A stretch of DNA of 4,826 bases from a virus (taxonomy: Duplodnaviria > Heunggongvirae > Uroviricota > Caudoviricetes): IMG/VR virus record IMGVR_UViG_2713896787_000012; one strand, written 5' to 3'. Positions 1,766 through 4,708 of the stretch are shown here, piece after piece. Made by a program: the position numbers and the translations under genes. The notes beneath the pieces were generated by a model. The model worked only from the letters and a program-made list of their open reading frames with translations. It was not told where the DNA came from and searched no databases. Within the stretch, counting starts at the first letter, position 1; each line of letters opens with the position of its first letter.

Positions 1766-2323
1766 ATGAGCACTATTACCAGAGAACGCGCGGAGATTAA
1801 ATCATACATCACAGGCTTCCTGAGCGACTCGGCGCACGATAACAAGTCTTCAGACAGCCTGCTGGCTAATGTGTTTCGTATCGCGCTGGCATCACTGGAA
1901 GCAGAGCCGATAGCAATGGTAGTGCCTGATGAAATGGATTTGCTTACCTGCCATCTCGACGGTGTAACTAAAACATATGCTGATGGCTGGAACGCCTGCC
2001 GCGTCGCCATGCTTCAGGCCGGAAACTTTCGGGAAAATAAGAATTCGTCAACCAACAATTTTCGGGAAATCTCGGAAACGTCAACCAGATCTCCGATAAC
2101 TCTGGATGGCTGGATAAGCTGTACTGAGCGAATGCCTGAAAAGAGCCAGAACGTGCTTATTTCGATGAATATCGATAGCGAGGCTGGGCCATTAATATAT
2201 TCCGCACGCTATCTCGGAGGCACGTTCCGGCGCGGAGGTATAGCAGTTAGTCCGGGTAATGATCTTAGGCAAGCAACCCACTGGATGTCGCTACCAGAAC
2301 CGCCGCAGGAGGTGAATCAATGA
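1766..2323 (+). CDS. DUF551-like phage protein (185 aa)
   Basis: SD AAGGA at 1753-1757, ATG 1766. C-terminal region (WISCTERMPE ... THWMSLPEPP) matches my recollection of the conserved DUF551 C-terminal signature common in lambdoid nin regions. Confidence 0.7.
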   Translation: MSTITRERAEIKSYITGFLSDSAHDNKSSDSLLANVFRIALASLEAEPIAMVVPDEMDLLTCHLDGVTKTYADGWNACRVAMLQAGNFRENKNSSTNNFREISETSTRSPITLDGWISCTERMPEKSQNVLISMNIDSEAGPLIYSARYLGGTFRRGGIAVSPGNDLRQATHWMSLPEPPQEVNQ

Positions 2324-2403
2324 CCTGGCCTGAAGCATTCACAACGGTAGGAATTGCGATGGCGGTGGCGCTGGTGGAGTATTCGATTTGCCGCTGGGGA
2401 TAA
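2320..2403 (+). CDS. Candidate micro-protein (27 aa, hydrophobic): MTWPEAFTTVGIAMAVALVEYSICRWG
   Basis: ATG 2320 overlaps the upstream stop (ATGA) and is preceded by AGGAGG at 2307-2312 with 7 nt spacing. Too short for the ORF track. Ends TAA 2401-2403, immediately before the hok promoter. Confidence 0.35.
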   Translation: MTWPEAFTTVGIAMAVALVEYSICRWG

Positions 2404-2410
2404 AAACGGT

Positions 2411-2438
2411 TTGCGGGAAAAGGATAGTTAAGTAGAAT
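2411..2438 (+). promoter_or_regulatory. Putative sigma70 promoter of the hok mRNA (-35 TTGCGG 2411-2416, 16-nt spacer, -10 TAGAAT 2433-2438)
   Basis: Hexamers and spacing read directly. The predicted +1 (about 2445) coincides with a GGGTGCTTGAGGC motif resembling the 5' end of plasmid R1 hok mRNA (GGCGCTTGAGGC, from memory). Confidence 0.5.
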
Positions 2439-2492
2439 TGCAGCGGGTGCTTGAGGCTATCTGCCTCGGGCATGAACACCAACGGCAGATAG

Positions 2493-2566
2493 AGAAAAGC
2501 CCCAGTTAACATTACGCGTCCTGCAAGACGCTTAACATTAATCTGAGGCTCAATCCATGCTGAACA
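2493..2566 (-). ncRNA. sok: Sok-like antisense RNA (type I antitoxin), about 70 nt, complementary to the hok leader and mok translation-initiation region
   Basis: Minus-strand promoter lies just to the right; the transcript would start near 2565 and run leftward across the mok ATG (2557). It ends in an imperfect hairpin (gcgtc/gacgc core at 2515-2530 flanked by 9-bp ttaacatta repeats) followed on the minus strand by ttttctc (2498-2492). Ends are approximate. Confidence 0.5.
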
Positions 2567-2799
2567 CATGTAGGTTAGCCTCTTACGTGCCGAAAGGCAA
2601 GGAGAAGCAGGCTATGAAGCAGCAAANNNNNNNNNNNNNNNNNNNNNNNNNNNNNNNNNNNNNNNNNNNNNNNNNNATCGTCATCTGTTTAACCGTCATA
2701 GTGACGGCACTGGTAACGAGGAAAGACCTCTGCGAGGTGCGAATCCGAACCGGTCAGACGGAGGTCGCTGTCTTCGTAGACTACGAATCTGAGAAGTAA
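2557..2799 (+). CDS. mok: Mok-like leader reading frame, in frame with and containing hok (arrangement as in chromosomal mokC/hokC)
   Basis: ATG 2557; N-terminus MLNTCRLASYVPKGKEKQA resembles the MokC N-terminus (MLNTCRVPLTDRKVKEKRA, from memory) and reads straight into the hok start MKQQ. Confidence 0.55.
   Translation: MLNTCRLASYVPKGKEKQAMKQQXXXXXXXXXXXXXXXXXIVICLTVIVTALVTRKDLCEVRIRTGQTEVAVFVDYESEK
2572..2600 (-). promoter_or_regulatory. Putative sok promoter on the minus strand (-35 TTGCCT, 17-nt spacer, -10 TAACCT)
   Basis: Reverse complement of 2595-2600 (aggcaa) gives TTGCCT and of 2572-2577 (aggtta) gives TAACCT, with a 17-nt spacer. Position matches the R1 sok promoter embedded antisense in the mok 5' region. 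Confidence 0.5.
2614..2799 (+). CDS. hok: Hok/Gef-family type I toxin (small membrane toxin); N-terminal/transmembrane part masked by 50 N
   Basis: After the gap: IVICLTVIVTALVTRKDLCEVRIRTGQTEVAVFVDYESEK, nearly identical in pattern to the HokC/Gef core (ALVTRKDLCEVHIRTGQTEVAVFTAYESE, from memory). ATG 2614 (MKQQ) is preceded by AAGGAGAAG. Stop TAA 2797-2799. Apparent length of 61 aa depends on the true gap size. Confidence 0.85.
   Translation: MKQQXXXXXXXXXXXXXXXXXIVICLTVIVTALVTRKDLCEVRIRTGQTEVAVFVDYESEK
2627..2676. other. Run of 50 N inside hok/mok
   Basis: Directly visible in the sequence; covers the hok N-terminal/transmembrane coding part. Confidence 0.99.
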
Positions 2800-2806
2800 G
2801 AGACCA

Positions 2807-2861
2807 GGCGGGGGAGTAATCTCCCGCCACCTCTGATGTGTCAGGCATCCTCAACGCACCC
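2807..2861 (+). promoter_or_regulatory. hok mRNA 3' region: stem-loop (2807-2828) plus fold-back element (2849-2861) complementary to the mRNA 5' end
   Basis: ggcgggggag / taat / ctcccgcc hairpin with no U-tract, then cctcaacgcaccc complementary to 2445-2456. Consistent with the fbi/tac pairing that keeps full-length hok mRNA translationally inert. Confidence 0.5.
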
Positions 2862-2918
2862 GCGCTTTACCATACTGAAAATGCTGTTTGAATGTTCATC
2901 TCTGAAAGAGGACTATGA

Positions 2919-3263
2919 ATGAAAAAGGTATTGATTGCAGCACTTATTTCCGGTGTGTCTTTTGGCGCTTTTGCACAGCAGGGTGGTTTCCAGGGGCCAG
3001 AAGCAGAGCGTTCAACAGTAGCGCAGGCAAAAGAACTGAAGGATGATGCATGGGTTATCCTTGAAGGGAGCATCGTTAAAAAAGTGGGTGATGAACGTTA
3101 TGAGTTTCGTGACAATAGCGGGACAATTGTCACGGATATTGATGACAGCGTATGGGCCGGGCAGAATGTTTCTCCGAAAGACAAAGTAAGAATTGAGGGT
3201 GAAATTGATAAAGACCTGAGCAGTGTTGAAGTTGATGTAAAGGCACTGAAATTATTAAAGTAA
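2919..3263 (+). CDS. YgiW/YdeI (BOF, DUF388) family secreted OB-fold protein (114 aa) with Sec signal peptide
   Basis: SD AAGAGGA at 2906-2912, ATG 2919. Signal peptide MKKVLIAALISGVSFGAFA followed by QQ. Body (WVILEGSIVKKVGDERYEFRDNSGTIVTDIDDSVW...VRIEGEIDKD...VEVDVK) matches the YgiW/YdeI family pattern as I recall it. Own terminator downstream. Confidence 0.85.
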   Translation: MKKVLIAALISGVSFGAFAQQGGFQGPEAERSTVAQAKELKDDAWVILEGSIVKKVGDERYEFRDNSGTIVTDIDDSVWAGQNVSPKDKVRIEGEIDKDLSSVEVDVKALKLLK

Positions 3264-3281
3264 CCGCCCCTGCTTGTTAAG

Positions 3282-3308
3282 CCCGTCTTACTGACGGGTT
3301 TTCTGTTT
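3282..3308 (+). terminator. Rho-independent terminator after the YgiW-like gene
   Basis: Stem cccgtc (3282-3287) / gacggg (3293-3298) with loop ttact, followed by ttttctgttt. Confidence 0.7.
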
Positions 3309-3335
3309 GTACATTCCGGCGTATTGCCTTACAAT
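3307..3335 (+). promoter_or_regulatory. Weak candidate promoter for the downstream genes (-35 TTGTAC 3307-3312, 17-nt spacer, -10 TACAAT 3330-3335)
   Basis: Hexamer match only; it sits between the terminator and the next CDS. Confidence 0.3.
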
Positions 3336-3384
3336 TCGCGCAGTCAGCCTGAACAACTGACACCTGCTGTCACCGGAGAATCCG

Positions 3385-3657
3385 ATGACACAACACATAA
3401 AATCCCACAATTCTGAAGCCGACCCGGAAATTAAGCAGGGGAGGCGTTTTCGTGCGCCTCAGTATGGCTGGTTTCACTATCTGTTCTGTACGATCGATGA
3501 GGCAGATATGCTTCAAGAGGCGTATCTGCGTCGCGGTGTCCGTGTGGAGCGGAGTCTGAACGCTGATCGTCTGACCTGGACCGTTTCTGTATATCTTCCT
3601 GTTCGTGCACATCTGCCACGGACACATGCCTGCTACCGTCAGCGCGTCTGGAGGTAA
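3385..3657 (+). CDS. Hypothetical small protein (90 aa), translationally coupled to the downstream YdfU-like gene; occupies the position of rem in the E. coli Qin prophage
   Basis: Good SD (GGAG, about 6 nt spacing) before ATG 3385. Stop TAA 3655-3657 lies inside the junction TAATGTG, where GTG 3659 starts the next gene. Homology to Rem is not established. Confidence 0.5.
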   Translation: MTQHIKSHNSEADPEIKQGRRFRAPQYGWFHYLFCTIDEADMLQEAYLRRGVRVERSLNADRLTWTVSVYLPVRAHLPRTHACYRQRVWR

Positions 3658-3658
3658 T

Positions 3659-4708
3659 GTGCGGGTATTACTTCGACCTGTTCTGGTTCCGGAACTCGGG
3701 CTGGTGGTCCTTAAGCCCGGTCGTGAATCATTGCCAGTTTTTCATCGCGGCAGGGTGCTGGTGGAGCCGGAACCGAAAAACATGCGGGCGCTGCCATCTG
3801 GAGCGGTTCCTGCTGTTCGCCAGCCGCTGGCGGAAGATAAATCACTGCTGCCATTTTTCAGCGATGAGCGGGTGATTCGTGCAGCTGGCGGCGCTGGTGC
3901 ACTGTCTGACTGGTTATTACGTCACGTGAAATCCTGCCAGTGGCCACACGGCGATTATCATCACAGCGAAACCGTTATTCACAGTTACGGTGCTGGCGCA
4001 ATGGTGTTGTGCTGGCACTGCGACAACCAGCTGCGCGACCAGACCTCCGAATCACTTGAGCAACTTACTCAACAAAATCTGACAGCCTGGATGATTGACG
4101 TCATACGCCATGTAATGAATGGCACGCAGGAGCGGGAATTATCGCTGGCTGAATTATCCTGGTGGGCAGTCTGCAATCAGGTGGTGGACGCATTACCTGA
4201 GGCAGTATCGCGTCGTTCTCTGGGATTACCGGCGGAAAAAATCCGCTCCGTATACCGTGAAAGCGACATCATACCGGGAGAACAGACCGCCACCAGCATA
4301 CTGAAGCAGCGCACAAAAAATATTGCGCTACCGCCTCACACCCACCAGCAACAGAACCCACCACAGGAAAAGACGGTGGTCAGCATTGCCGTTGATCCGG
4401 AGTCTCCGGAATCCTTCATGAAACGACCTAAACGTCGCCGCTGGGTAAATGAGAAATACACACGCTGGGTAAAGACACAGCCGTGTGCGTGTTGTGGTAA
4501 GCCAGCGGACGATCCTCATCATCTGATTGGTCATGGTCAGGGTGGAATGGGAACAAAATCCCACGATATTTTCACGCTACCGCTGTGTCGGGAGCATCAC
4601 AACGAGCTTCATGCGGATCCGCTGGCGTTCGAAGAAAAGCATGGTTCCCAGGTTGATTTAATTTTTCGTTTTCTTGATCACGCCTTTGCAACCGGCGTGC
4701 TCGGGTAA
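3659..4708 (+). CDS. YdfU-like DUF968 protein (349 aa) with a C-terminal Cys/His zinc-finger, HNH-like motif
   Basis: ORF-track entry 3605-4708 trimmed to GTG 3659, which is preceded by GGAGG (3650-3654) and directly follows the upstream stop. The resulting 349 aa matches the length I recall for E. coli YdfU. C-terminus CACCGKPADDPHHLIGHGQGGMGTKSHDIFTLPLCREHHNELH. Start could alternatively be ATG 3626 or GTG 3605. Confidence 0.7.
   Translation: MRVLLRPVLVPELGLVVLKPGRESLPVFHRGRVLVEPEPKNMRALPSGAVPAVRQPLAEDKSLLPFFSDERVIRAAGGAGALSDWLLRHVKSCQWPHGDYHHSETVIHSYGAGAMVLCWHCDNQLRDQTSESLEQLTQQNLTAWMIDVIRHVMNGTQERELSLAELSWWAVCNQVVDALPEAVSRRSLGLPAEKIRSVYRESDIIPGEQTATSILKQRTKNIALPPHTHQQQNPPQEKTVVSIAVDPESPESFMKRPKRRRWVNEKYTRWVKTQPCACCGKPADDPHHLIGHGQGGMGTKSHDIFTLPLCREHHNELHADPLAFEEKHGSQVDLIFRFLDHAFATGVLG

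Follow-up and report, generated by a model that had tools for sequence, protein, structure and literature searches.

A ygiW-like gene nested in a hok/sok cassette

The DNA considered here is a 4,826-nucleotide (nt) stretch of the IMG/VR virus record IMGVR_UViG_2713896787_000012 (Caudoviricetes), referred to below as the window, and the gene under study is a ygiW-like gene whose product is a YgiW/BOF-family protein with an oligonucleotide/oligosaccharide-binding (OB) fold. The gene order is DUF1627, small genes, DUF4014, DUF551, hok, the ygiW-like gene, a 90-amino-acid open reading frame (ORF), DUF968 and RusA, which is that of a lambdoid nin region. In the EDL933 chromosome (NZ_CP008957.1) a nearly identical sequence lies near 1.90 Mb, and the segment 2677-4215 of the window matches it without a mismatch. 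Two runs of N, at 1226-1275 and 2627-2676, are placeholders with a fixed length of 50 nt, which do not preserve the length of what they mask. The second stands for only 20 real bases (hok codons 5-11) and thereby shifts the coordinates by 30 nt relative to real genomes, so that an EDL933 coordinate is the window position plus 1899103 before this run and plus 1899073 after it. The ygiW-like gene is already annotated, and taken by itself it is an ordinary, uncharacterised member of a known family. The first-pass annotation had described it as a self-contained unit, flanked by the hok locus and the next genes. This description is not supported: the gene is not an independent module but the distal cistron of a hok/sok cassette, it lies between the fbi element of the hok mRNA and the terminator of the cassette (Table 1), a strong promoter of its own is lacking, and in the data examined it does not occur separately from hok.

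The enclosing unit displays a Hok ORF, a Sok RNA (Rfam RF01794, 113.5 bits against a gathering score of 59), complementarity between tac and fbi at the two ends of the mRNA, and sense and antisense start sites where a hok/sok locus is expected to have them. The equivalent EDL933 protein is annotated as Hok/Gef (WP_000813258.1), and from the hok ATG onwards there is no mismatch outside the masked stretch. The layout of promoter, tac, sok, mok/hok and fbi is that of R1 hok/sok and of the chromosomal and prophage hokD loci (relF, Qin), and hokD DNA is 90-95% identical to the window up to 2871. RNAfold predicts the tac-fbi pairing GGGUGC/GCACCC, with nt 1-14 pairing with nt 377-391 in a 421-nt hokD RNA that lacks the ygiW-like gene and in the 834-nt hok-ygiW RNA alike. 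The distance from tac to fbi is 383 nt in six of the eight loci examined and 382 or 384 nt in the other two. Closure of the mRNA by tac and fbi is known from R1 hok/sok, where the terminator directly follows fbi and the stretch between them is trimmed away, with about 40 nt lost from the 3' end, when the mRNA is activated. In canonical hok loci the terminator lies within about 10 nt of fbi, whereas in the window a complete gene for a protein with a signal peptide is interposed and 415 nt separate fbi from the terminator stem.

Where does the inserted segment begin and end? The first-pass annotation had proposed that related prophages lacking the gene would define its boundaries, and they do so. 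In the collinear loci L004 and L003 the sequence ...GCACCCGCACTTAACC is joined immediately to the terminator CCGCTTCGGCGGGTTTT. The window instead has about 420 bp after GCACCCGC, comprising the leader, the ORF and the left terminator arm, and collinearity with these two loci returns at CGGGTTTT...TTACAATTCGC, which sets the boundaries at 2872 and about 3293. The terminator at 3279 aligns with the one that directly follows fbi in loci without the gene. Its hairpin begins 15 nt 3' of the ygiW-like stop codon and is also recovered in the RNA folds. It is the single terminator-like site in 2300-3700, a count that alone is no better than chance (one found, 1.1 expected in shuffled sequences). The call is corroborated because homology to phage 933W ends exactly there, and so the rho-independent terminator claimed earlier stands. 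In the 933W alignment, identity begins at window 2305 and stops at 3310, right after the terminator T-run, with unrelated flanks on either side.

A survey of 5426 complete E. coli genomes gave the same picture. In the hokD loci of 4694 genomes the match breaks off at query position 182 (window 2871), directly after fbi. The ygiW-like ORF occurs in 548 of the 5426 genomes (649 places), and a joined query made of the 3' half of hok and the ORF aligns as one block and is covered to at least 80% in 550 genomes. In all 46 IMG/VR loci with enough upstream sequence, the hok stop codon lies 117-121 nt, and fbi 61-63 nt, 5' of the ygiW-like ATG. Variants at 81-82% identity, found in three other contexts, keep the hok-ygiW layout unchanged. 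A more distant case is L086 (2500-3470), in which a 128-amino-acid BOF homologue (P0008, 59% identical) follows a divergent 50-amino-acid Hok in another lambdoid nin region. There too the BOF gene has GCACCCGC on its 5' side and a terminator on its 3' side, and this terminator, AAACCCGCTTAGGCGGGTTTT, is almost the same as the one found right after fbi in L004. The minimum free energy fold of the 921-nt L086 RNA does not recover the tac-fbi pairing even though complementary elements are present; we regard this result as uninformative, as such folds are unreliable for long RNAs. Wherever upstream sequence is readable, the linkage of the ygiW-like gene to hok is invariable, and no copy apart from hok was seen in the data examined. 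Other near homologues are not linked to hok: some have transposases as neighbours, and others follow tail-fibre genes or belong to a chromosomal neighbourhood of stress genes. BOF genes thus recur as cargo of mobile elements, and the arrangement embedded in hok marks particular lineages. Direct repeats flanking the insert (CTTTACC ... GTTAAGCC) were considered as a target-site duplication and dropped, as they are not conserved in the 81-82% variants. At the place equivalent to the small hydrophobic ORF 5' of the hok promoter, these variants carry an unrelated hydrophobic ORF of 34 amino acids.

Table 1. Positions of the features of the cassette and its downstream boundary (window coordinates)
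Feature	Position	Strand	Details
Whole mobile cassette	2305-3310	+	Small membrane ORF, hok/sok, ygiW-like gene, terminator; ~98% to 933W/Sp5
Hydrophobic ORF	2320-2403	+	27 codons (MTWPEAFTTVGIAMAVALVEYSICRWG); ATG overlaps DUF551 stop (ATGA); part of the block shared with 933W
hok promoter	2411-2445	+	TTGCGG 2411-2416, 16-nt spacer, TAGAAT 2433-2438; mRNA start G2445
tac element	from G2445	+	5' end of hok mRNA, GGGUGCUUGAGGC
Sok antisense RNA	2495-2565	-	933W sokW annotation mapped onto the window
mok frame	start 2557	+	Overlaps hok
hok toxin ORF	2614-2799	+	NCBIfam Hok subfamily match on the unmasked part; codons 5-11 under the 50-N placeholder 2627-2676
fbi element	2856-2863	+	GCACCCGC; complementary to the 5' end of hok mRNA
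ygiW-specific segment	2872-3293	+	47-nt leader with Shine-Dalgarno sequence, ORF, left part of terminator; only in hok loci bearing the ygiW-like gene
Shine-Dalgarno sequence	2906-2912	+	AAGAGGA; 6 nt 5' of the ygiW-like ATG; read from the sequence
ygiW-like ORF	2919-3263	+	YgiW/BOF-family OB-fold protein, 114 amino acids
Signal peptide codons	2919-2975	+	Mature protein begins QQGGFQGP
Intrinsic terminator	3279-3311 (hairpin 3279-3301)	+	9-bp GC-rich stem, 5-nt loop, TTTTCTGTTTGT tail
Promoter of the next unit	3308-3342	+	TGTACA, 16-nt spacer, TACAAT (scan); start site 3342 (EDL933 1902415) in 8/8 conditions

Family, fold and distribution of the YgiW-like protein

The family assignment of the first-pass annotation is borne out by hidden Markov model searches, in which the protein exceeds three curated cutoffs: Pfam BOF PF04076 (E 1.9e-33, 115.1 bits against 25.8), NCBIfam NF033674 NirD/YgiW/YdeI (136.8 bits against 35) and, by a narrow margin, TIGR00156 (112.3 bits against 108.15). 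It falls below the cutoff of the YdeI equivalog NF007471 (64.8 bits against 179). By sequence, E. coli YgiW is the sole relative with a solved structure (1NNX, E 3.5e-29). An AlphaFold (AF2) model built from 34 homologues has a predicted local distance difference test score of 91-98 across residues 31-114 and consists of a five-stranded barrel with short helices. The best Foldseek match of the model is again 1NNX (E 8.7e-12, template modelling score 0.91 on the target, 53% identity), and the matches ranked below it are other OB folds. The N-terminus runs from MKK through the hydrophobic stretch VLIAALISGVSFG, with a 13-residue hydrophobic core, to AFA|QQ, and mean Kyte-Doolittle hydropathy is 2.21 over residues 4-19 and -0.59 over the remainder. 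Sequence inspection revealed no Cys, hence no lipobox, and no twin-arginine motif. These signal-peptide features, kept in all homologues aligned, conform to a Sec/signal-peptidase-I substrate pattern and agree with the signal peptide proposed at the outset; the product, which had simply been called secreted, is better described as a protein with predicted periplasmic export. The Shine-Dalgarno sequence reported for the gene is likewise present; its region, GAAGAGGAC, is kept in the 81-82% variants, and in the predicted fold of the read-through RNA its probability of being unpaired is 0.46.

Relative to the variants, the ratio of nonsynonymous to synonymous substitution rates (dN/dS) is 0.04-0.22 at a synonymous divergence of up to 0.39, and the gene is therefore under purifying selection and maintained as protein-coding. 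It is a paralogue of chromosomal YgiW and not its orthologue. Chromosomal E. coli YgiW and Salmonella VisP belong to the same Pfam and TIGR families, share 53% identity over the OB domain, have a signal peptide and provide the best structural match. In contrast to their genes, the ygiW-like gene does not lie beside qseBC; its neighbours are hok/sok and nin-region genes, it is borne on mobile elements and it is embedded in the hok unit. The proteins differ as well. The hok-linked clade lacks the first of two GGF-x-GP repeats in residues 20-30 (2976-3008), so that the duplicated linker is missing and the protein is 13 residues shorter, and in residues 97-100 (3207-3218) it has KDL where nearly all relatives have KDW, that is, Leu replaces the conserved Trp of the DKDW motif. 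As a consequence of these two changes, the ligand or partner of the hok-linked clade may differ from that of the characterised relatives. The protein falls into PHROG 1230, to which no function is assigned, and membership of a defence system was dropped, as PADLOC returned no defence-family match. G+C content shows a small dip over the ORF (0.45-0.47, against 0.50-0.59 in the flanks). A protein scan of representative genomes gave only distant chromosomal homologues among the matches listed (44-51% identity; Rahnella, Ewingella and others) and was uninformative as a guide to the donor.

The closest known counterparts are L0136 of 933W and ECs1244 (H0152) of Sakai Sp5, which are the same gene: the DNA is 97.5-98% identical, one residue differs, and the hok/sok neighbour, leader and terminator are shared with the window. 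The 933W record already notes the similarity of L0136 to YgiW and YdeI, and no functional study of L0136, ECs1244 or a hok-linked paralogue was found in the literature. The slot is different: the cassette of the window lies in the nin region between DUF551 and DUF968/RusA, whereas in 933W and Sp5 it is near attR, beside the giant L0134/ECs1242. Window positions 2800-3400 are 100% identical in many O157:H7, O26, O111, O145, O103 and O121 genomes, where the product is annotated as 'NirD/YgiW/YdeI family stress tolerance protein', and the gene itself is identical in EDL933 and hundreds of Shiga toxin-producing E. coli (STEC) genomes. About 10% of complete E. coli genomes carry the cassette, often in several copies, and the best-matching genomes listed are STEC of serogroups O157, O26, O111, O145, O103 and O121. 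Three locations were recorded for the 81-82% variants: an O121 nin region, an IncY plasmid, on which insertion sequence elements lie to either side, and a non-phage chromosomal site. At the last of these, a hok-ygiW pair with 81% protein identity (L006 3300-4420, also L007-L009) is flanked by a cytochrome c peroxidase gene on one side and by mrp/metG on the other. The assemblies concerned carry the label E. coli; among complete E. coli genomes none matches this pair at more than 87%.

L004 retains the same hok, terminator, 90-amino-acid ORF, DUF968, RusA and Q and has no ygiW-like gene, and L003, which also lacks it, has other genes in that slot. The absence from these collinear loci, together with the occurrence of the same block elsewhere in 933W/Sp5, on the IncY plasmid and at the non-phage chromosomal site, supports the conclusion, already drawn in the first-pass annotation, that the gene is accessory prophage cargo and not part of the backbone. 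The cassette resembles phage morons such as bor and lom of lambda, which are accessory, present or absent between conserved genes, expressed in the lysogen and delimited by a terminator. It is the whole hok/sok-ygiW cassette that corresponds to a moron, as the ygiW-like gene alone has the terminator but lacks a convincing promoter, with only weak stationary-phase starts to its name. Downstream of the cassette, the DUF968 protein (3605-4708, plus strand) has a weak match to the HNHc_6 nuclease family (E 1e-4), and its annotated EDL933 start corresponds to window 3659 (349 amino acids), as opposed to 3605 for the longest ORF.

Transcription of the gene and competing explanations

Transcription start sites (TSSs) were taken from Table S5 of a Cappable-seq study of EDL933 (PMC10469882), which covers eight uninduced culture conditions, and were mapped base for base onto the window; the antisense entries come from the 933W copy of EDL933. 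The hok start is a plus-strand TSS at 2445 (EDL933 1901548), 7 nt after TAGAAT, and is present in eight of eight conditions; the 933W copy has the same start (1392267). The Sok start, an antisense TSS at 2565 (1392147), was likewise detected in all eight. Recovery of these known starts validates the mapping. A consensus scan yielded no sigma-70-like promoter in 2862-2918, and no Cappable-seq start is listed there for the identical EDL933 sequence, in line with the earlier failure to see a convincing promoter in this spacer. Hand inspection produced only a YATRCT hexamer after fbi, conserved in the variants, which was rejected for want of a supporting TSS. No terminator-like site was found by scanning between hok and the ygiW-like ORF. 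The only starts assigned to the gene are weak TSSs at 2787 and 2801 (plus strand; 1901860 and 1901874), seen only in 'stat LB' and 'stat acid'; they fall in the last codons and the stop codon of hok, with a -10-like TAGACT at 2777-2782. The start at 3342 lies 7 nt after TACAAT, heads the unit of the 90-amino-acid ORF, DUF968 and RusA, and marks the downstream boundary of the cassette. Its activity in all eight uninduced conditions suggests that these three genes of the prophage are transcribed in lysogens.

How would the ygiW-like gene be expressed? The simplest model is co-transcription by read-through from hok, because the start at 2445 is constitutive, no terminator is encountered until 3279 and no start lies in the spacer. 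The absence of a promoter from 2862-2918 is explained in the same way, as the gene sits inside the hok transcription unit, 5' of the terminator of that unit. We propose the following sequence of events. The constitutive hok promoter would be active in uninduced lysogens and, with no terminator before 3279, would give an RNA of about 0.83-0.86 kb. The first ~390 nt of this RNA would fold into a closed, translationally silent hok domain, while the 3' part, with its accessible Shine-Dalgarno sequence, would be translated into the YgiW-like protein; the weak stationary-phase starts at 2787 and 2801 would contribute too. As with its relatives, the mature protein of about 95 residues may then have outer-membrane proteins, cationic peptides or both as periplasmic ligands, and the tolerance of the lysogen to envelope stress (oxidants, metals, antimicrobial peptides) would be raised. 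The detection of hokW mRNA in lysogens before induction has been reported (Takada 2021, PMC8621323).

The functional part of this proposal is modelled on the periplasmic BOF proteins YdeI/OmdA of Salmonella and SipA of Vibrio cholerae. YgiW and SipA can replace each other in tolerance to H2O2 and cadmium, SipA has OmpA as a partner and also binds polymyxin B and LL-37, and YgiW-OmpF and YdeI-OmpD interactions have been reported (PMC6370654). The ydeI and sipA genes are under two-component systems; the ygiW-like gene would instead be read from a toxin-antitoxin promoter. Overall, we consider it somewhat more likely than not that the gene encodes a periplasmic envelope-stress or antimicrobial-peptide tolerance protein of the lysogen, expressed mainly by read-through from the hok promoter.

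Several points weigh against this interpretation. The weak TSSs at 2787 and 2801 indicate some independent initiation, and Rho-dependent termination or processing is possible in the 119-nt untranslated spacer. A published transcript spanning the hok-ygiW junction was not found, and one hokW Northern study gives no sizes in its text. EDL933 has two ~98% identical copies, between which the assignment of reads may be imperfect; a single-nucleotide difference at window 2808 distinguishes them. An antisense TSS at 2905 (minus strand, 933W copy, 1391837), listed in seven of eight conditions, could interfere with read-through. The stress-tolerance role is a prediction by homology to YgiW, YdeI and SipA, and the missing first GGF repeat and the Trp-to-Leu change in DKDW separate the protein from its characterised relatives. 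The locus tags ECs1244, ECs1245 and L0136 did not occur in the searchable full text or in the enterohaemorrhagic E. coli RNA-seq and Ribo-seq supplements checked.

Further start sites were noted in and around the gene. The antisense TSS at 2905 has a promoter-like CATAGT at 2912-2917 on the minus strand, begins one base from the ygiW Shine-Dalgarno sequence and continues over the spacer and fbi into the 3' end of hok; its promoter is within the ygiW-specific segment and hence occurs only in hok loci that bear the gene. Inside the ORF there is a promoter-like site, TTGATG with a 17-nt spacer and CAGAAT (3139-3176, plus strand), with a TSS at 3174/3176 in seven of eight conditions that PMC10469882 assigns to the downstream gene. 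Its transcripts would reach the terminator after about 130 nt and could be a small RNA derived from the 3' end; a structured small RNA from 3176 to the terminator was discarded, the fold z-score of -1.39 being unremarkable. A second sense TSS at 2556, one base 5' of the mok ATG, is present in eight of eight conditions and in both EDL933 copies. The RNA starting there would be devoid of tac and most of the Sok target, and the site may represent a genuine promoter or else a processed RNA end that Cappable-seq picked up.

The weak stationary-phase starts form the basis of a different view, in which the gene is an independent stationary-phase gene with a weak RpoS-type promoter of its own in the 3' end of hok, hok RNAs end or are processed before the ORF, and linkage to hok is hitch-hiking. 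That the TSSs given to the gene, 2787 and 2801, are confined to stationary LB and stationary acid is in keeping with this view, as is the position of TAGACT 4 nt 5' of 2787 without a good -35, a combination common for RpoS promoters; chromosomal members of the family are, moreover, stress-induced. However, these TSSs appear in two of eight conditions and in one copy, and there is no Cappable-seq row for the ygiW-like gene of the 98%-identical 933W copy. Nor does a terminator intervene between hok and the ORF, and hitch-hiking is a poor explanation for an fbi-BOF-terminator order that occurs in two lineages at only 59% identity and with different Hok proteins. We regard an independent gene as unlikely.

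Invariable linkage to hok across four genomic contexts, down to 59% protein identity, can also be read as a sign of a functional partnership. The ~420-nt insert might retune 3' exonucleolytic maturation of hok mRNA, or the protein might bind the periplasmic tail of Hok or buffer the damage it causes, giving a three-part system. Insertion has taken place exactly between fbi and the terminator, the stretch trimmed in canonical activation of R1 hok mRNA, and one family member binds small cationic peptides. On the other side, a hokW-sokW clone ending 30 nt into the ORF still works as a toxin-antitoxin pair (primers YO-432/YO-433; PMC8621323), most hok loci (4694 genomes) work without the ygiW-like gene, and related BOF genes exist without hok. 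Such a partnership appears quite improbable. A stronger form, in which the BOF gene is an integral third component of hok/sok whose translated ORF gates 3' maturation and/or whose product binds the Hok tail or counters its damage, so that toxin activation is coupled to the state of the envelope, seems to us a little less probable still.

The binding of OmpF, OmpD or OmpA from the periplasmic side by family members raises another idea, namely that the protein masks a porin or other outer-membrane protein used by competing phages or colicins, an exclusion function that would benefit the prophage. Recurrent carriage in phage accessory slots, in one case after tail-fibre genes, is typical of exclusion genes. 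However, phage exclusion has been reported for no member of the family, and neither PADLOC, without a match, nor PHROG 1230, without an assigned function, lends it weight; we attach little probability to it. Finally, a decaying passenger, a functionless remnant kept by a selfish hok cassette, is the most doubtful of these explanations: the length of 114 amino acids against 127-130 in relatives, the lost Trp and some frameshifted or truncated copies (P0002, P0006, P0007 and P0011) speak for it, but dN/dS is low at appreciable synonymous divergence, the signal peptide, Shine-Dalgarno sequence and OB core are kept and the structure model is confident.

Disease association and implications of the nesting

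The lysogenic-conversion or fitness role suggested by the first-pass annotation is best taken as a hypothesis. The only phenotype-level lead for such a role is an Irish national case-control genome-wide association study (GWAS), and it may do no more than mark prophage content. In that study 'ygiW_2' and 'group_5720' (mokC-like) were associated with haemolytic uraemic syndrome (HUS), with an adjusted odds ratio of ~5.5, and were treated as a possible interaction; it was not remarked that the two genes adjoin in one prophage cassette. Most likely ygiW_2 is the hok-linked prophage paralogue. If so, both genes reside in one cassette, carried by 933W/Sp5-type Stx2a phages as well as by other lambdoid prophages, co-dependence is expected from linkage, and the 'synergy' is most likely a linkage artefact. 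The signal may mark prophage content and not a causal factor, and it gives a precise locus for follow-up. If, on the other hand, the BOF gene were a third component of hok/sok, toxin-envelope coupling and not prophage linkage could be the reason why ygiW_2 and the mok-like gene were jointly associated with HUS.

The nesting also has a bearing on published genetics. HokW has been shown to be a functional toxin and HokW-SokW a working pair (Takada 2021, PMC8621323). The hokW-sokW::kan deletion of that study (primers YO-351/YO-352, window ~2443-2840) removes the hok promoter and places a resistance cassette directly 5' of the ygiW-like gene. Polar effects on this gene, which were left out of the interpretation of phage release in PMC8621323, could contribute to the reported phage-release phenotype.

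No description of an fbi-[ygiW]-terminator arrangement was found in the papers searched. What is new here is the nesting of a BOF gene in the hok transcription unit, which accounts for its missing promoter, and the definition of the insertion boundaries within the cassette. If this embedding alters the maturation of hok mRNA, the cassette would be a novel version of a toxin system that serves as a textbook case of RNA regulation.

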